A stretch of 45,279 bases of DNA from a virus (Duplodnaviria; Caudoviricetes). The notes under the pieces were generated by a model. The model made no database searches and was not told where the DNA came from. It saw only the letters and a program-made list of their open reading frames with translations. The DNA lies in IMG/VR virus record IMGVR_UViG_3300033067_002210, positions 1 to 45,279 of that record. One strand, written 5' to 3'. A program made the position numbers and the translations under genes. Below, piece by piece: positions 2,218-24,989 of this stretch (its first letter is position 1; every line of letters begins with the position of its first letter).

Positions 2218-2236
2218 CGTATTGTTTTAATATGTG

Positions 2237-2330
2237 GCCCTTGTAGTCTAGTGTGAGTGATGCCCGGCCCGATCCGTCAAGTCACGGGTGAGAAAGCCGG
2301 GATGCACGGGTTCGATTCCCGTCGAGGGCT
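2237..2330 (+). ncRNA. tRNA-like RNA with expanded anticodon arm (identity unassignable)
   Basis: acceptor stem GCCCTTG/CGAGGGC, TAG at positions 8-10, T-arm ACGGG-TTCGATT-CCCGT, stem CCCGGC/GCCGGG enclosing 27 nt; no encoded CCA. Confidence 0.7.
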
Positions 2331-2332
2331 TT

Positions 2333-8972: not shown

Positions 8973-8979
8973 TGATTCT

Positions 8980-9009
8980 GGGCCGCCAGTAATATTTTAC
9001 TGGCGGCCC
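8980..9009 (+). terminator. stem-loop after the sheath gene
   Basis: GGGCCGCCAGTAA-TATT-TTACTGGCGGCCC, perfect 13-bp stem. Confidence 0.75.
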
Positions 9010-9081
9010 TTGTCGTATATGGTAGGTGAGCTGTTCAAACAGGTCAAATATAAAACGGGTTTCTACTCAAGGAGATATCAC

Positions 9082-9258
9082 ATGAAGAAGCTGCTCGTAG
9101 TTTGCGCTCTGGTGCTCGCTGGTTTCGCTTTCGAAGTTCCACAGGCTGAAGCCAATGGCGGTCGTGCTGCCGTTGTGGTTCAGAGCCGTGGCCGTCGAGT
9201 TCAGCGGGTGCGTGTCCAGAACGTTCGTGGTGGTGTCCAGCGAATCGTCGTTCGCTAA
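9082..9258 (+). CDS. small secreted cationic peptide (signal peptide plus Arg/Val-rich mature part)
   Basis: AAGGAG SD; MKKLLVVCALVLAGFAFEVPQAEA signal-like with AxA site; mature part has 9 Arg and no acidic residue. Confidence 0.8.
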   Translation: MKKLLVVCALVLAGFAFEVPQAEANGGRAAVVVQSRGRRVQRVRVQNVRGGVQRIVVR

Positions 9259-9265
9259 TCGCACT

Positions 9266-9300
9266 AGAGCCATTGGTTAGGTCGCCTGATCAATGGCTCT
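9266..9300 (+). terminator. stem-loop between convergent genes
   Basis: AGAGCCATTGGTTAGG-TCG-CCTGATCAATGGCTCT, 16 bp including G-U pairs. Confidence 0.7.
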
Positions 9301-9313
9301 TGTCGTATTACCA

Positions 9314-9345
9314 GTGAGCTAAAAATTCCCGTGAGCTAAAAATTC
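9314..9345. repeat. 15-bp direct repeat GTGAGCTAAAAATTC
   Basis: copies at 9314-9328 and 9331-9345, overlapping the stop of the minus-strand LxDP gene. Confidence 0.8.
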
Positions 9346-9675
9346 GTAATGATCAGTACTATAAGTGGGGTCAAAGACATCAGACCGTTCAGTTACCCAT
9401 TCTGGGTTTATTAGATGATTTATCTTTACGAATCTAAGATGGTAATCAATAGTGTATCGAATAAAATCTACAACCAGATCTAAAGACTTTGGATCTGCTA
9501 ACTCAATCGCTTTAATTGTGTAGTGACGCATGTTTATAAATATCTTCTCACCTTCTATGTTTATATATAATTGAACAATACTAGTATTTATAAAGATAAC
9601 ATCTTCACTAAGATGTTTTCCGATAGATGATTCAATTCCACTATCGCGGAAGTGAGTGACTAGTTCTTGCAGCAT
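9319..9675 (-). CDS. LxDP-family small protein (copy 4)
   Basis: MLQELVTHFRDSGI...IELADPKSLDLVVDFI. Confidence 0.75.
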   Translation of the reverse strand: MLQELVTHFRDSGIESSIGKHLSEDVIFINTSIVQLYINIEGEKIFINMRHYTIKAIELADPKSLDLVVDFIRYTIDYHLRFVKINHLINPEWVTERSDVFDPTYSTDHYEFLAHGNF

Positions 9676-9693
9676 ATTGTTCCTATACAGTGC

Positions 9694-9981
9694 TTACATT
9701 CCGTCGGTGTGTCCGCAGTGTTTGCACGAAGAATAAAACATGCCGCTATCGTCAACGTGTACGCATCTACTCTGGATTTCTATCAATTTATCAGAGTATT
9801 CAGCATCTAGGGCAGACTTGTCATCTTTGTGCTTTATGATAATTTCGGCCTCTCGGTCGAATCCACCATATTGTTTCAATATGTCGGCGACAGCTAAGCT
9901 CCTAATTGGAAGCTCGACGATTTGGGCCGCATACCAAGCATTCAACAGGTCTACTTCTTCTTTGATGGTCATGAGAATCAT
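9694..9981 (-). CDS. hypothetical protein with C-terminal CxH...CxxC
   Basis: GGAG SD; SRCVHVD...SCKHCG; start at 9981 or 9972; AACGTATTG motif upstream. Confidence 0.6.
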   Translation of the reverse strand: MILMTIKEEVDLLNAWYAAQIVELPIRSLAVADILKQYGGFDREAEIIIKHKDDKSALDAEYSDKLIEIQSRCVHVDDSGMFYSSCKHCGHTDGM

Positions 9982-10055
9982 CGCTCCGTGGAAATGGTTC
10001 TTCAATACGTTAAAGCTATCAAATATATCCTAACATCATTGACATGGCGGCGATA

Positions 10056-10760
10056 ATGAAATTATGCTCAATAGTTGAAAACGGTATCACCAGACGTGAT
10101 GCTCTTAAGAAGGGGATCGGAGGCGCAATCGGCCTCGCCAACGGCGGTATCGGCGGCTTGGCAAAAATGGCGTTCAATATGGGTTCGAATGTCGATCCAC
10201 TCGCTGATGTTGATGATAATGAGCTGTTTCAGACTCCAGAAGAAGAATGGATTACTAAAATCCCATATGCACGTTTGCTACGAATGTTTCAAAAGAATCC
10301 TAATTATTTAAGATGGGAAGCTGGTAGCAAGATCGGCCAACTAATGACATATGGTGCTGGATACAAACAAGCCGGACCAATTTTAAAGATGCTGGTAAAG
10401 GCTGCAAAAGATTCTGGTCTAGATGTGAATAAGATAGCCCTTGATATACCAAAGGACTTGTCATATTTGGCAGATGCCTTTGCGAACACACCAATACCAG
10501 AGGCAGATAAATTGTTAGATGTGGCTCGCGAAGCCGGGATTAATTTGCCGGTCGGACGCACCAGAATGGATTTCGTTAAGGCCGCCAACAGCCATAAAGA
10601 AATAGACGCTAAATACGAACGGCAGAAGCGTGAGCGGCAACAAGAAATAACAAATAAAATCCCTAACGAGAAGATACATATACCACAAGACTACTATGAT
10701 GCTTCGTCAATGCATCAATCATTCGAAAGCAGATTGAATCGCGCGCTGGCAATTATTTAA
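10056..10760 (+). CDS. putative internal head protein
   Basis: MKLCSIVE resembles a T4-type capsid-targeting leader, followed by TRRDALKKG; C-terminal FESRLNRAL; late-type motif at 10020. Confidence 0.6.
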   Translation: MKLCSIVENGITRRDALKKGIGGAIGLANGGIGGLAKMAFNMGSNVDPLADVDDNELFQTPEEEWITKIPYARLLRMFQKNPNYLRWEAGSKIGQLMTYGAGYKQAGPILKMLVKAAKDSGLDVNKIALDIPKDLSYLADAFANTPIPEADKLLDVAREAGINLPVGRTRMDFVKAANSHKEIDAKYERQKRERQQEITNKIPNEKIHIPQDYYDASSMHQSFESRLNRALAII

Positions 10761-11644
10761 TGTCGACGATATCTAACGTCATAAACGAGGAAGTACCATT
10801 TGAACTATACGATTTCAACCAAGTATATGCACTAAGACTAGCAGAATCGCTTGATAAAATAGAGATCGGAATTGATCATAAGATAGACAGCATAGAATGT
10901 CCATATTATACTAGAAATCCTCAAACTACACACTTGTTAAAGCGGCTAGAATCCGCACTAATACCATACTCGAACACGGCATGGCTAAAACGGAGAGGAA
11001 TAGTTTGTGAGGCTTTTTCCCTGGATTATAATATATTATCAGTACAAGATTTGTTAGACCTGTACGTGATTCCATCTGACCACATTATAAAAGAACATGG
11101 GTTTCGACCTATAGACGGACCAGTCTTCCCAGATTGGCGAAACGGAGAACTGGTCGGGATCTGTGTCAGGAATATTACGTGCGATATTGGCTATGCATCG
11201 TCTGCTAAGTTTACCATCTCAAATTATGGATGGTATTTGTATGGATATGATGAATATACACGCGATGATGAAGTATACTTGGTAGAAGGAGTTTTTGACG
11301 CTATAGTAATGCGCCAGAACGGATATAAAGCAATCGCGGGAGCCACAGCATACCCGACTGCGATACAATTAGCATGCTTGCAACACAAATACCGCAACCT
11401 CAGGCTATGTCTTGATAATGACTTTTGGGGAAAAGTCGGAGCTTATATTATTGGATCGGTTACCAACATACCAATCTATATGACTGAATTGAAAGATGCT
11501 GGATGTTACGTTAATTCTAAAGTTGTGTTGAACGAATGTACGACCAATAAGTTGTGGCGAGAATTACAGCACGAGATTCCTGAGTATAATCGGTTATTAA
11601 AAGAAAATAAACTAGTCAGACGATTACCGTATAACACTGAGTAG
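10760..11644 (+). CDS. TOPRIM / DNA primase-like protein without Zn-binding domain
   Basis: PVFP..RNGELVGICVR, YLYGYD, VYLVEGVFDAI, LCLDNDFWG. Confidence 0.8.
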   Translation: MSTISNVINEEVPFELYDFNQVYALRLAESLDKIEIGIDHKIDSIECPYYTRNPQTTHLLKRLESALIPYSNTAWLKRRGIVCEAFSLDYNILSVQDLLDLYVIPSDHIIKEHGFRPIDGPVFPDWRNGELVGICVRNITCDIGYASSAKFTISNYGWYLYGYDEYTRDDEVYLVEGVFDAIVMRQNGYKAIAGATAYPTAIQLACLQHKYRNLRLCLDNDFWGKVGAYIIGSVTNIPIYMTELKDAGCYVNSKVVLNECTTNKLWRELQHEIPEYNRLLKENKLVRRLPYNTE

Positions 11645-11974
11645 TTCTTTTCTCGATTCCGGACCAAAGTCAAAAGTGTTAACCCAGTCAATGACTTTAG
11701 CGAAGCAATCAGGATCAATTATTGAGAATTCTACAGGAGGACATGGACGCCCTACTAATGGGTACGGAAATATGATAATGTTTTCTAAATCTCGATCAGA
11801 TTCAATATAATACGTGAACTCAGAGGCATAATATGTAATAGAGCTTTGTGAATTATCCAACTCCATAGCGTGTGGGTCTATAAGAACAGTATTTTGCTGG
11901 GCAGCTTTCTTGAATTCGGCAAGCAGCGTTTCGAGAATCAGGACCCGAAATTTATCATTACTGAGATTAATCAT
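11624..11974 (-). CDS. LxDP-family small protein (copy 5)
   Basis: EFSIIDPDCFAKVIDWV; AT-rich. Confidence 0.65.
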   Translation of the reverse strand: MINLSNDKFRVLILETLLAEFKKAAQQNTVLIDPHAMELDNSQSSITYYASEFTYYIESDRDLENIIIFPYPLVGRPCPPVEFSIIDPDCFAKVIDWVNTFDFGPESRKELLSVIR

Positions 11975-11990
11975 AAGTCAATATATAAAA

Positions 11991-12023
11991 ATTGTGCTAT
12001 TGTGTAAGACACAATAGCACAAT
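11991..12023 (-). terminator. intrinsic terminator
   Basis: perfect 15-bp inverted repeat ATTGTGCTATTGTGT/ACACAATAGCACAAT, followed by a T-run on the minus strand. Confidence 0.75.
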
Positions 12024-12186
12024 ACGAGTGATGTAACCTTGCCTGTCCGGTGGTCTGGGCACCTTTGCCGACTTCGGCCCGTTGGAGTACGGTCCACCAG
12101 CACTTCTTAGTCTTTTCCCGGCTACGGGTGAGGGCCGTCGGAACTCCACAGCCCCTGCTTACTCAACCCCACTAAAGATCACTCGT
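12024..12186 (-). ncRNA. structured non-coding RNA of unknown class
   Basis: 9-bp terminal stem ACGAGTGAT/ATCACTCGT, several internal hairpins with G-U pairs valid only on the minus strand, complementary loops UGGAGU/ACUCCA, terminator directly downstream. Confidence 0.65.
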
Positions 12187-12195
12187 TACTTCAGA

Positions 12196-12573
12196 CTATA
12201 CATTCGGCTTCACAGTCACACTCGCCTTGGCCGCAGGCGTCACAGAATCTTCGTAAACGAGAATCCCCTGACTGATCAGCTTCTCCTTGATTCCAGGAGC
12301 AGAAGCCAGCCGCTCCTCATTGAACACCAGCGTTTTCGTCCGAACCTCATCACGCGGCTTGGAAATGAGGACGATCCCCTGACCCTCGACCGTAATCTCT
12401 TTCTTGTCGCCGCCAGCGATCGTCCGCAGCTCCTCTTTTGATCGCTCCAACTGTTCAGTCAGAGAATCGATCTGCCGCTTCAGCGCGATAGCTTCGCGAG
12501 CTACGGCAAGCTCCGGGAAGCCAACAGATGCGATGTCCAGCGATTCGGGTTTCACTTCCTCTGCTACTGTCAT
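12196..12573 (-). CDS. hypothetical coiled-coil protein
   Basis: GGAG SD, AACGTATTT motif upstream, heptads in AREAIALKRQIDSLTEQLERSKEEL. Confidence 0.8.
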   Translation of the reverse strand: MTVAEEVKPESLDIASVGFPELAVAREAIALKRQIDSLTEQLERSKEELRTIAGGDKKEITVEGQGIVLISKPRDEVRTKTLVFNEERLASAPGIKEKLISQGILVYEDSVTPAAKASVTVKPNV

Positions 12574-12623
12574 GGTGGTCTCCAGAGATGGAATAGCACA
12601 CTCTCATCTCAAATACGTTGTCT

Positions 12624-12950
12624 CTACAAAATTCCACGTATGAATTCGACAGCCTTATCTAAAGCCGACGGATCTTCCAAATCGAAATACATGTGCCTAC
12701 CGCTATGTGTTACACAAACCACAGAATAAGTAGTAGTGATATATGTTGCTATGGTATTCCTACTACTTGCTCCATGGAATTCTTCAGTTGCCGCTCGTTT
12801 TATCCAAACATATCCAGGCACAATTTCACATATGAATCCAGCATTGGTTAAGAACTCTTTATACGCATTAAGTATCTTAACATCATCACCATAATCACTT
12901 AGTATTGAAGTCACGCCTGCAAAATTCCAAGTAGACTGGATAACATTCAC
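12624..12950 (-). CDS. LxDP-family small protein (copy 6)
   Basis: ILNAYKEFLTNAGF...FDLEDPSALDKAVEFI; ATGA overlap with the HNH gene stop. Confidence 0.75.
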   Translation of the reverse strand: MNVIQSTWNFAGVTSILSDYGDDVKILNAYKEFLTNAGFICEIVPGYVWIKRAATEEFHGASSRNTIATYITTTYSVVCVTHSGRHMYFDLEDPSALDKAVEFIRGIL

Positions 12951-13978
12951 GATTGTGATGCCATAGTATGCGGGCAGTGACCGTACAATCCTTTGGCCTT
13001 ATTACAATTGGAGCAAAGAAGCTGAATGGAGTCGGGATAATTATTCTGAACGATCCATTCTAATATCGATACTTTGATCGATTTCAGATATTTCCTATGC
13101 TCCTTACCATCATTATCCACATGATCAAACTCCAAAAATGCCCAATTATCCTCTCCGCAACAGGTGCACTTACCACCATATTGAGTAATCGCCTTCTGCC
13201 GCTTTTCGATGACTCGTTGTGATCGCATAGATCTTATATTAGTGTCTGTTTGGTTATGTGGACATATTCCAAACCTCGCTTTCGCCTGATTGCAATTAGA
13301 ACATAGTATTTGCAGATCTTTCGGATAGTTATTTCTTATCGCCCATTCTATAATGCGTCTTTTTACTATCTTCCTATGTTCATGGCCATCTCCGTGCACA
13401 TGGTCTATGTCTAAAAATGCGAATGTTGATTCACCGCAGCATGCGCATTTATAACCATAATGTTTTAGTACTAGTATTCTGCTTCTATACCAATATAATC
13501 GTGTTCTAATTAGATGATTATTATGGCAGATATTGCATCTAAACTTGTCGCTTAATTGTGATCCGCAGAATGGACATATTTTATTTAATTTTCTTGATTT
13601 ATATCGGCGCATGGTTGCATTAGTCGCTCTTTCAGAGCATTTTATGCATGTTATCGTGCCTGGCATCGGCGGCTTTCCACAAGTTATACAGCCACCATTG
13701 TCTATGTGTAATTTCCTTTGTCGTTTCTGGTATTCTCTACCCTTTTCTAGACATATTTTGCATAGTTTTTCATCATTAGTCAAAATGCTACCGCATTTAC
13801 ATAGCCCTTTCGATCTCTTTTTGGCAAGCCTACGAGCATCGATGATTTTTGTCTTTTCAAGGCATGCATTACACAGCCACTTACTAGTTTCTTTCGGATT
13901 CCGACATTTAAAGCAAATATTTAATTGGAGGCATCTAGCTTTGTGGCGTTGATACTCTCCGGTACGATCACGAGACAT
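12947..13978 (-). CDS. HNH endonuclease with two HNH domains and N-terminal CxxC repeats
   Basis: YGYKCACCGE..FLDIDHV..LQILCSNCN and YGGKCTCCGE..FLEFDHV..IQLLCSNCN. Confidence 0.85.
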   Translation of the reverse strand: MSRDRTGEYQRHKARCLQLNICFKCRNPKETSKWLCNACLEKTKIIDARRLAKKRSKGLCKCGSILTNDEKLCKICLEKGREYQKRQRKLHIDNGGCITCGKPPMPGTITCIKCSERATNATMRRYKSRKLNKICPFCGSQLSDKFRCNICHNNHLIRTRLYWYRSRILVLKHYGYKCACCGESTFAFLDIDHVHGDGHEHRKIVKRRIIEWAIRNNYPKDLQILCSNCNQAKARFGICPHNQTDTNIRSMRSQRVIEKRQKAITQYGGKCTCCGEDNWAFLEFDHVDNDGKEHRKYLKSIKVSILEWIVQNNYPDSIQLLCSNCNKAKGLYGHCPHTMASQS

Positions 13979-14018
13979 TAGTAACACTCAAAGAACGGTG
14001 GGTATGGTAACATACCTA

Positions 14019-22640: not shown

Positions 22641-23943
22641 GGCGAATACTCTATCGACTCCGGTCACTAAAGGTAAACCGCGTGCCAAGATTCTCTTCGA
22701 TGTCGGAGAGCTGGCTGGAACGGATTTTGGTGAGCATTTTAAGAAAATTGAGTTTCGAGCGATGGTGAATGGCGGGTATATTGTCCGCATTAAATTGTTT
22801 GACCCATCTTTCACGATTTTAAATACTTTGGTTGAAGAGGGGTATTTCAAGGAAGCTCGTATAAAACCAGTTCCAGTATATTTTCAATTATATTCCGAAT
22901 CTCCAGATTATCCAGAAACCGCCACCCGACTACAGGTGGCTATTCTGATTTCTATGAAAGCCAACGGAGCGGCGGCGGACAAGGCCGATCTGGAATTTAT
23001 TGCGATAGATCCGCCATCGTGGTTTTTGAATATCGGCGACGGGTCTGGAAAAGTGTACAAGGGGAGAGTAGATCAAGTCATCAAGCAAGTCGTCTCACAG
23101 TACGCCCCAGAAATCTCTTTGGAAATCGGCAAGACAACCGATTCGGCTGAGAACAAATGGGCTATGATGCGACAAGACCCTAAGTCCTTCATAGCTTCTA
23201 TGATGGATTGGTCATCGTCCGTCACCATGAAGAAGACACAATGGATTATAATGGCCGATGGATATAATTTAGAGATAAAGGAGCAAGGAGCGATACCTTC
23301 TACTCAACGGGCATATTATCGGTATTTGGAAGCCAAGGATCACGATAGTATCAAAAGTTGGGATTTCTTGTCAGATAATGCTTTATCAGCAGTTCAAACC
23401 AAGATTATTACTCAAGGCATATCAGCGGTCAGTGGACAATATTTGGATAGAATTACTGACGAAAAAGAGGAGAAGCTGTTTGCTAAGGATTCGCGAACGG
23501 CTAACAAACAAATTGCCAGAACTAAGTCTGATCAATCTTTTACCAAGCCAACTGATGAAGCAAGACCGACTACCGCTGGGTGGACTTCGGTGATGGCAGT
23601 GCCGGAAATATATTCGTCGGGCGATATCGGTTTACGCTATGATGAATATATTGATGGCCGCCCGCGTGCTCTGTGGTTGAACATGGTGAATGCCCTGCAG
23701 CGGGTGAAGCTGCGGGTCATTGGACACGGCATCTGGTCAGATTGCGAAGGTCTCGGCGTCGATACAATCTTCGTAAAATGGACGAAAGCTGAGAGCAGCG
23801 GCGACTCTCAGAGATATTGGTGGATGAGCGGAAACTGGTTGGTATATGGGTTCGAACATATTATGGACAAGGGGTCGTGGTACACGGACCTCTATTGTGC
23901 GAGAAGTGATTGGAATTCTAACGCTGTTAAAGTTGGTGGCTAA
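22639..23943 (+). CDS. baseplate hub protein (gp27/gpD-like)
   Basis: YKGRVDQVIKQV, C-terminal MSGNWLVYGFEHIM..WYTDLYCAR typical of contractile-tail hub proteins. Confidence 0.7.
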   Translation: MANTLSTPVTKGKPRAKILFDVGELAGTDFGEHFKKIEFRAMVNGGYIVRIKLFDPSFTILNTLVEEGYFKEARIKPVPVYFQLYSESPDYPETATRLQVAILISMKANGAAADKADLEFIAIDPPSWFLNIGDGSGKVYKGRVDQVIKQVVSQYAPEISLEIGKTTDSAENKWAMMRQDPKSFIASMMDWSSSVTMKKTQWIIMADGYNLEIKEQGAIPSTQRAYYRYLEAKDHDSIKSWDFLSDNALSAVQTKIITQGISAVSGQYLDRITDEKEEKLFAKDSRTANKQIARTKSDQSFTKPTDEARPTTAGWTSVMAVPEIYSSGDIGLRYDEYIDGRPRALWLNMVNALQRVKLRVIGHGIWSDCEGLGVDTIFVKWTKAESSGDSQRYWWMSGNWLVYGFEHIMDKGSWYTDLYCARSDWNSNAVKVGG

Positions 23944-24928
23944 GGTCATCATAGCTTTTGGCTTTGTCATTATGATGTACAAACCATTTATAATTATACA
24001 CAGAGTGTCGGCATGGACCAATAAATTTCAAAAATTCGTGGCGATCATTTAATGATGTGATGCTAATCATAGGATATGATTTATTAAGTTTTCTAATTTT
24101 ATACATATACAATCTAGAACGCACAGGCATTTTCGAGATTAGCATTTCTACGTCAGGAACTGTAAATCCGTTAGTGCATAGATATAAACTGTTTCTAGCA
24201 GAGCTTCCATCACCAACATACCACCAATAGCATGTTTCTGCCGTGAGAACTATGTCGTTAGGAATAACTTTTGCGCTGTTTGGATACCATTTGTGTCGTA
24301 AATTTAGGAATTCCTTGAATGCTATTGACTGGCTCCTCCACCGTTGGTACCATTTACTCGTTCTTTCATCATAAAATTTTATATTGTCTGGCTGTCTTTG
24401 GAACAACCGTGGCAATTCATAGCATAGACTACTTGGGACCATTTCATGCTTGCATGCGTAGCCTATACTTCCGGTATATTCATGCTCATTTATCCATCCG
24501 TCACCAAGTAGCATTCCATTTACTATTTCACTCTCCTTGGTAGTGAGATTTATAGATGGCTGACGTAACCCGACGTATTCTGATATACTTCTGGTTTCTA
24601 GATTATTTCTTGAGAAATATTGTTGGATTGTTGGATAAGTGGTCCCAACTTTGGTTGCTACTTCTTCCAGTGGCATTATTGAATATAGGTTTTTGATGTG
24701 AGTTAAGAATTCTGATTTATTATCAAAGCCAGCTTTCCTATGTAATTCGCTATGTGTTATGCTTTCTATTTTAAAATATTTAAATAATCTATGCATTGTC
24801 ATGTAGCTTATGGACAAACGTGAGCATATCGCACGTTTGTCTAAGCATTCGATATTATGTAGGCGTATTATTTCGTCTTGTAGAGATGCTTCAGACGCGA
24901 AGCCGTACTTTTTGTATTGAATAGCCAT
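23927..24928 (-). CDS. free-standing LAGLIDADG homing endonuclease with N-terminal HTH repeats
   Basis: IVNGMLLGDG, WYPN..KVIP, WWYVGDGS, LCTNGFT; GGAGAG SD before ATG 24928. Confidence 0.88.
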   Translation of the reverse strand: MAIQYKKYGFASEASLQDEIIRLHNIECLDKRAICSRLSISYMTMHRLFKYFKIESITHSELHRKAGFDNKSEFLTHIKNLYSIMPLEEVATKVGTTYPTIQQYFSRNNLETRSISEYVGLRQPSINLTTKESEIVNGMLLGDGWINEHEYTGSIGYACKHEMVPSSLCYELPRLFQRQPDNIKFYDERTSKWYQRWRSQSIAFKEFLNLRHKWYPNSAKVIPNDIVLTAETCYWWYVGDGSSARNSLYLCTNGFTVPDVEMLISKMPVRSRLYMYKIRKLNKSYPMISITSLNDRHEFLKFIGPCRHSVYNYKWFVHHNDKAKSYDDLSHQL

Positions 24929-24989
24929 TGTCTCTCCGTTTGCGTGGTACATTGATATGTACTGTTGCAATTTTGAGAGACGATATTGG

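Follow-up and report, generated by a model that had tools for sequence, protein, structure and literature searches.

A candidate structured RNA behind a phage gene whose relatives are followed by a covarying tRNA mimic

Large riboswitch aptamers, e.g. those for c-di-AMP, lysine and cobalamin, contain two branched domains or loop-loop contacts, and the proteins Sipho_Gp157 and Mu Gam form coiled-coil homodimers. Bacterial defences against phages often target tRNA, and the answer known from phages is to supply replacement tRNAs. According to three reports, host proteins sensing or cutting tRNA are a known battleground of phages (PMC10264068, PMC11555353, PMC12409363), and phage tRNAs counter such tRNA-targeting defences (PMC10264068, PMC11555353). 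According to Chen et al. 2014 (PMC4201824), YrlA carries an acceptor-like stem-loop between its T and D arms, and the Y RNA lies beside Ro60. For the VS ribozyme, PMC5573960 describes a kissing loop bringing two internal loops together. Here we compare with these systems a candidate structured phage RNA and a tRNA mimic that is found behind relatives of its neighbouring gene.

We analysed a 45-kb virus record over its whole length of 45,279 nucleotides (the window), which is estimated to be 12% complete. It encodes a tail sheath, two T4-like tube genes, baseplate genes, a B12-type ribonucleotide reductase and a helicase, and records of 354 and 408 kb are among the relatives found through the tube gene; the window is therefore part of a jumbo myophage genome. 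In 29 of the 38 related loci with a sheath match, the genes for sheath and tube lie side by side. Both are separated by about 5 kb in the window, and this insert (8973-13997) harbours, besides the 125-aa gene and the RNA studied here, A+T-rich ORFans, a primase-like Toprim gene (10760-11644) and an HNH endonuclease gene (12947-13987, minus strand; PHROG 2255, E 1.1e-17). None of the six inserted ORFs tested, the HNH gene being left apart, nor the 125-aa gene was found among 45 related loci. The base composition of the 125-aa gene (55% G+C) and of the RNA (58%) differs from that of the flanks (37-39%); on the 3' side of the terminator follows an A+T-rich ORF of 116 aa belonging to no family (11624-11974, minus strand). 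The preliminary description had considered the nearby HNH protein as a partner of the RNA. This is unlikely, as relatives of the HNH protein (54% identity) adjoin the tail-tube gene in four loci having neither the 125-aa gene nor the RNA, and the HNH gene is probably a separate mobile gene unrelated to the RNA.

Several further elements were seen in the window. A 9-mer forming part of the 5' arm of the terminator (12013-12021) is repeated exactly and directly at 12592-12600 (minus strand); it is present three times in the window, i.e. at the latter site and in both terminator arms, and the pair flanks the 125-aa gene and the RNA on both sides. Possible readings are an insertion scar, a promoter or operator element and a site of long-range pairing. 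By eye, an imperfect hairpin (12571-12615, minus strand) lies just 5' of the ribosome-binding site of the 125-aa gene, possibly a site of translational control or processing. Past the sheath terminator we noticed a small G+C-rich ORF (9083-9258, plus strand), which starts like a signal peptide and contains repeats rich in Arg and Val; a 26-nt inverted repeat (9256-9310) comes after it. A LAGLIDADG endonuclease gene (23927-24970, minus strand; Pfam E 3.5e-20) lies on the opposite strand inside the structural region. ARAGORN calls a tRNA-Ile(GAT) of 96 nt at 2236-2331 (plus strand), the anticodon region of which is enlarged in the Rfam alignment, and it is possibly an intron-bearing or pseudo-tRNA.

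The candidate non-coding RNA (12024-12186, minus strand; 163 nt) fills the space between the 125-aa gene and a terminator-like hairpin, starting 9 nt past the stop codon and ending flush with the hairpin, so the position right behind the gene and in front of a terminator given in the preliminary description is borne out. The terminator-like element (11987-12023, minus strand) consists of a perfect 15-bp hairpin (11991-12023; pair probability 0.74-1.0) followed by an A/T run. For the RNA itself, two domains within a closing stem had been drawn, linked by a kissing-loop contact, and all seven helices as well as the 6-nt loop-loop complement (12143-12148 with 12083-12088) are present in the sequence. 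Fold prediction bore out the closing stem, first hairpin and domain 2 of the drawing; it did not bear out the stem closing domain 1 and hairpin P4. The closing stem P1 (12178-12186 with 12024-12032) has nine Watson-Crick pairs with probabilities of 0.72-1.0 and spans 163 of the 172 intergenic bases. Hairpin P3 (12131-12155; 7-8 bp, 9-nt loop), the 7-bp core of which is predicted at 0.74-0.99, holds 12143-12148 as one side of the predicted loop-loop pairing. Domain 2 (12047-12100) is predicted at 0.92-1.0 with the kissing loops held open; its 7-bp stem P5 (12094-12100 with 12047-12053) encloses P6 (12079-12092), the loop of which (12083-12088) is the other kissing side, P7 (12067-12078) and a 13-nt linker. 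The sixth kissing pair would form only if the closing pair of the first hairpin opens. For the stem closing domain 1 (12106-12176; 12171-12176 with 12106-12111) the complement is present, and its pair probability is 0.01-0.03. Hairpin P4 (CCCG; 12117-12128) reaches 0.55 unconstrained; with the kissing loops held open it falls to 0.33 and is outcompeted by a rival 6-bp helix (12120-12125 with 12033-12038) at 0.65. The predicted fold is thus firm at P1, P3 and domain 2, and weak in what remains of domain 1. G-U pairs make up 4 of the 42 pairs and would become A-C on the plus strand, where a descriptor of the fold gives no match, in agreement with the strand originally assigned.

The 125-aa gene (12196-12573, minus strand) belongs to a jumbo-phage family. 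A profile search with its product returned 117 proteins at E<=0.001, the query included, and a sister protein (P0002) shares 51% identity. None of the 51 aligned family members reaches a Pfam cut-off, Sipho_Gp157 and Mu Gam included, and one of these 51 matches Mu Gam at E 0.0099. The predicted model (pLDDT 88.8) shows an N-terminal helix of 35 residues, short strands and an extended C-terminal part, and Foldseek gave no match to it at E<=0.001; the weak look-alikes are Gp157 clusters, which are among the nearest structural models with TM values of 0.44-0.47, below the bar of the tool, and the C-terminal part of RecE/YqaJ exonucleases. Structure prediction with two copies gives an intertwined antiparallel coiled-coil homodimer with a large interface (score 0.62 versus 0.06 for the best control); of 30 solved pairs 20 attain the mark for this score, and of 23 single chains 1; the prediction runs agree in at least 94% of the contacts at a pLDDT of at least 79. 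Basic residues are conserved at K46, R50 and R74, position 46 being basic in 96% and position 50 in 100% of the members, and the protein as a whole is not strongly basic, with a net charge of -3 at a family median of +1. The C-terminus of the family (P0001-P0119) is unusually fixed, ending in N followed by V, K, A, I or T in 94 of 118 proteins, which suggests a functional free C-terminus. In some members (loci L008 and L022; proteins P0006 and P0029) about 25 residues of the C-terminal half are duplicated internally. No match to the Ro60/TROVE Pfam families was found among the 21 proteins scanned in this 12% complete record.

Loci carrying relatives of the 125-aa gene were collected by pattern scans, in which 12 of 12 loci from viral contigs and 15 of 33 from metagenomes were true homologues, distant subfamilies lying outside this sample; an alignment or protein-id search for such loci was blank in viral contigs and genome contigs. 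The window RNA itself was found behind none of the scanned homologues. Most of these loci carry another RNA, a tRNA mimic of 150-170 nt which has no anticodon and a sealed acceptor end, as exemplified by L097:19371-19533 (minus), L004:1240-1404 (minus) and L023:1243-1388 (plus), with 11 more distinct loci. An alignment of ten sequences shows a closing stem, a 5' hairpin, a 6-bp acceptor-like stem, a D-stem with two extra hairpins in its loop, an arm with a 4-5-nt loop at the place of the anticodon arm and a T-arm with a one-base bulge; the arms follow the normal tRNA order and the acceptor end is sealed by a three-way junction. The structure is supported by covariation, 19 of the 32 pairs changing on both sides, 94.7% of the cells being paired and the covariation score being reached by 0 of 500 shuffles, and slid controls drop to 35-45%. 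A covariance model adds four distinct members at 71-147 bits, resulting in 14 distinct sequences with scores of 71-165 bits. ARAGORN (0 of 8 loci) and Rfam make no call for the mimic, and it is absent from annotated phages. With 14 distinct sequences, strong covariation and absence from Rfam, the mimic family is firmly a new RNA, whatever the window RNA is.

The mimic is linked to the gene family. Its model matches 11 of 12 viral and 10 of 15 metagenome gene loci, one of the misses having 11 nt only past the stop. Among 22 records, 13 encode the protein, representing 8 distinct cases as these records are not independent, and 12 of the 13 have the mimic; the nine records without the gene, one of them a 98% complete genome, give no strong mimic match, so that gene and mimic are present together or both absent in 21 of the 22. 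This succession of gene relatives and a covarying RNA in 12 of 13 records lends indirect support to the transcription unit of RNA and gene proposed earlier, and favours the ribonucleoprotein and decoy options. The distance from the stop codon to the mimic in 12 loci is at most 10 nt in seven, like that of the RNA in the window, 96 nt in one and 507-646 nt in four, and the gene-RNA distance overall ranges from -5 to 646 nt. The mimic accompanies proteins scattered across much of the family tree; one subclade (L012, L018/L020, L031 and L032) has the gene and no such RNA nearby. Because an equally conserved upstream gene family is common to 11 of 14 loci, the linkage may be plain synteny. The gene copy in the window has none of its usual neighbours. 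In the 408-kb relative the gene-mimic pair lies about 2.5 kb beyond the genes matching the left end of the window; the usual site therefore lies just outside the record, and the copy in the window is relocated. Since the record covers an estimated 12% of the genome, a normal mimic may exist elsewhere in this phage.

The window RNA shares with the mimic the position directly 3' of the gene family, the strand, the size of 150-170 nt and a closing stem. With filters off, the covariance model of the mimic did not return the window RNA among 27 matches down to 4.4 bits. A pairwise local alignment of both RNAs was equalled by 46 of 500 shuffles and an alignment to the full profile by 113 of 1812; a profile trimmed after the fact was equalled by 11 of 2000 and ranks the window RNA first in the window at 26.1, the next scores being 25.9 and 25.0. 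It aligns RNA positions 81-144 to the core and 3' end of the mimic, placing P5 on the acceptor-like stem, and an intact T-arm is absent from the window RNA. A pseudoknot common to both RNAs was considered and rejected, since the closing stem of L003 changes on both sides and the D-loop stays. By sequence the likeness is borderline, and we do not file the window RNA in the mimic family.

Searches for the window RNA elsewhere agree with the earlier statement that it matches no known family: Rfam 15 assigns none at the gathering score, the sole match in the window being the tRNA (2237-2330), and lists six chance-level matches below threshold (E 0.43-7.9), and ARAGORN does not call a tRNA or tmRNA. 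No homologue was found in its own record or by blastn in phages and plasmids, a DNA search of 10 related records and nhmmer on the gene and tail-tube loci were blank or at chance level, and a single-sequence covariance model returned nothing in two sets of loci totalling 1.17 Mb and 1.14 Mb and in 41 records. All 22 matches to an exact 16-mer of the RNA in viral contigs were judged by eye to be chance. Among sequencing runs, one contained the sequence, possibly as the source of this DNA, and no RNA run was listed. A scan of its translated frames found no relative, and a 50-codon ORF inside the RNA was rejected, having no relative either. Likenesses to a group I intron core, RNase P, T-box, tmRNA, twister-sister and lariat-capping RNAs, compared by eye from general knowledge of these motifs, were dismissed for wrong order or missing partners, and Rfam gave them no support. 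A literature search found no description of such an RNA; the window RNA or the tRNA mimic may be among the 10,006 viral candidates of PMC10690425.

The preliminary description had looked to folding better than shuffled controls as a check on the structure. This was not found, the folding energy being ordinary (MFE z -0.84, matched by 40 of 200 shuffles; z -0.97 in a second estimate), and 13 covarying RNAs of like size used as a benchmark are all stronger (z -1.3 to -3.3). Combinations of features were rarer, in tests designed after the fold was seen and therefore overstating significance: at least four hairpins together with a 6-bp loop-loop match occur in 1 of 400 shuffles, a fold like domain 2 in 35 of 5000 and the latter with a kiss of at least 5 bp in 0 of 5000, and a structure descriptor, likewise post hoc, run over 2.32 Mb of DNA from related phages, gave three matches with a 5-bp kiss and no 6-bp one. 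The closing stem alone is not rare, as 14 stems of 9 bp spanning 120-220 nt exist in the window. Taken together, we consider it probable that the window RNA is a selected RNA structure. The opposite reading, stems arisen by chance in a G+C-rich spacer or left over from a decayed RNA or the 50-codon ORF, draws on the ordinary folding energy, the number of comparable long-range stems, the blank homologue searches and the post hoc nature of the tests; it has to account for a domain 2 with kiss that no shuffle reproduced, a closing stem spanning nearly the whole intergenic space, G-U pairs favouring the transcribed strand and an ORF that has no relatives, and we regard it as unlikely.

We propose, with a probability of roughly 0.3, that the locus is a gene-plus-RNA cassette which has been relocated, whose RNA has been replaced or remodelled and which likely acts as a protein-RNA decoy. 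According to this model the G+C-rich unit of 125-aa gene, 163-base RNA and terminator, sitting in the A+T-rich tail-region insert, would carry an RNA that likely takes the place occupied in related phages by the tRNA mimic without anticodon. Gene and RNA would be co-transcribed up to the terminator, resulting in the release of a stable RNA sealed by the closing stem; the predicted protein dimer may bind this RNA, likely forming a particle, which might serve as a decoy for tRNA-binding, tRNA-sensing or tRNA-cutting host proteins. For the cassette count the linkage of gene and covarying mimic over much of the family tree, the common size and closing stem of both RNAs, the G+C content and the 9-nt repeat that set off gene and RNA from their flanks, the predicted homodimer with its conserved basic positions, the phage tRNAs that counter tRNA-targeting defences, and that the relocated gene copy still has a closed, unusual predicted fold right behind it; against it count an RNA of ordinary folding energy that found no homologue to show covariation and does not fit the covariance model of the mimic, the possible synteny, the variable distance from gene to mimic, the subclade without the RNA, the mere 8 distinct cases among the 13 records, the net charge of the protein and the low completeness of the record. 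Of the two RNAs, the mimic offers the best ground for the decoy step and the window RNA the weakest; to the latter the role of a tRNA decoy is not simply transferable because it has no intact T-arm. The wider proposal of an undescribed ribonucleoprotein, in which a small intertwined dimer holds an exchangeable RNA (the mimic in most members, here a two-domain RNA locked by kissing loops) and jams host defences sensing or cutting tRNA, is in our view improbable. Just as likely as the cassette with its decoy is a free-standing small RNA using the transcript and terminator of the gene, the protein being a non-binding DNA-end or recombination accessory of the Gp157/Gam type. The wide range of gene-RNA distances, the subclade having the gene without the RNA, the weak protein look-alikes and the fact that one gene family precedes two different RNAs all argue for such independence; it sits less well with a gene that kept an RNA-like neighbour after its move to a new site, and with the joint presence or absence of gene and mimic in nearly all records. 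Either reading could accommodate a tentative variant, in which domain 2 would be a shrunken descendant of the mimic joined to a new 5' domain, having kept the acceptor-like stem, lost the 5' hairpin and the D-loop inserts and eroded the T-arm. The trimmed profile, which aligns positions 81-144 end to end as its best match in the window, and the same place, strand and size point to such a descent, although the cut points were picked after the likeness was seen, the untrimmed profile is far less selective, the next scores in the window are close, the registers of sequence and structure disagree and the covariance model is blank.

Two further readings bear on the transcript itself. A cis element that shields the message of the 125-aa gene at its 3' end or, as a sensor of the riboswitch type, controls read-through into the 116-aa gene would fit a closing stem that abuts the terminator and a fold resembling the multi-helix, loop-loop architecture of large riboswitch aptamers. 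We consider it quite unlikely, given that the terminator pairs at 0.74-1.0, that no riboswitch of Rfam matches and that an antiterminator was sought and rejected: deleting the 3' arm of the terminator frees none that opens P1 and costs about 19 kcal/mol. Least likely is a self-cleaving ribozyme of a new class, an option raised in the preliminary description, in which the kissing loops would dock two domains and the transcript would be trimmed. Size and loop-loop contact recall the VS ribozyme as described in PMC5573960, and long purine-rich stretches are unpaired; P3 is a continuous helix offering no substrate-type internal loop in the drawn fold, Rfam ribozymes do not match, and the option found no support beyond the kissing loop. 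Returning to the relocated cassette, a conserved gene together with a non-decoding mimic would be a different answer to tRNA-targeting defence, namely a decoy that brings its own protein; should the window RNA bind this protein as well, one protein family would accept two RNA folds.

Compared with known systems, the window RNA is like large riboswitch aptamers in its closing stem, two branched domains, predicted pseudoknot and a terminator directly behind, and unlike them in matching no Rfam family and having no antiterminator. The protein resembles Siphovirus Gp157 and Mu Gam in its long N-terminal helix and predicted antiparallel coiled-coil dimer, whereas 0 of 51 members reach the Pfam cut-off and Foldseek gives no match at E<=0.001. 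The Neurospora VS ribozyme (PMC5573960) is similar in length, multi-helix junctions and a kissing-loop contact between domains, here predicted from a 6-nt complement; it differs from the window RNA, in which P3 is continuous over 7-8 bp without a G638-type internal loop and no A756 loop was identified. Phage-encoded tRNAs (PMC10264068, PMC11555353) share with the mimic the proposed role of shielding translation from host tRNA nucleases; in contrast to these tRNAs, which can be charged and replace cut ones, the mimic with its 4-5-nt arm loops is non-decoding and could only be a decoy. The nearest known design is that of the bacterial and phage Y RNAs (YrlA) with Ro60/Rsr (PMC4201824). Like YrlA, a non-coding RNA here lies beside a protein gene, and the mimic of the relatives has no working anticodon and a blocked acceptor end. 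Unlike in the YrlA/Ro60 pair, the neighbour is a 125-aa helical protein and the mimic keeps the normal tRNA order, sealed by a three-way junction and bearing two D-loop hairpins, while the window RNA has no permuted tRNA-like domain.
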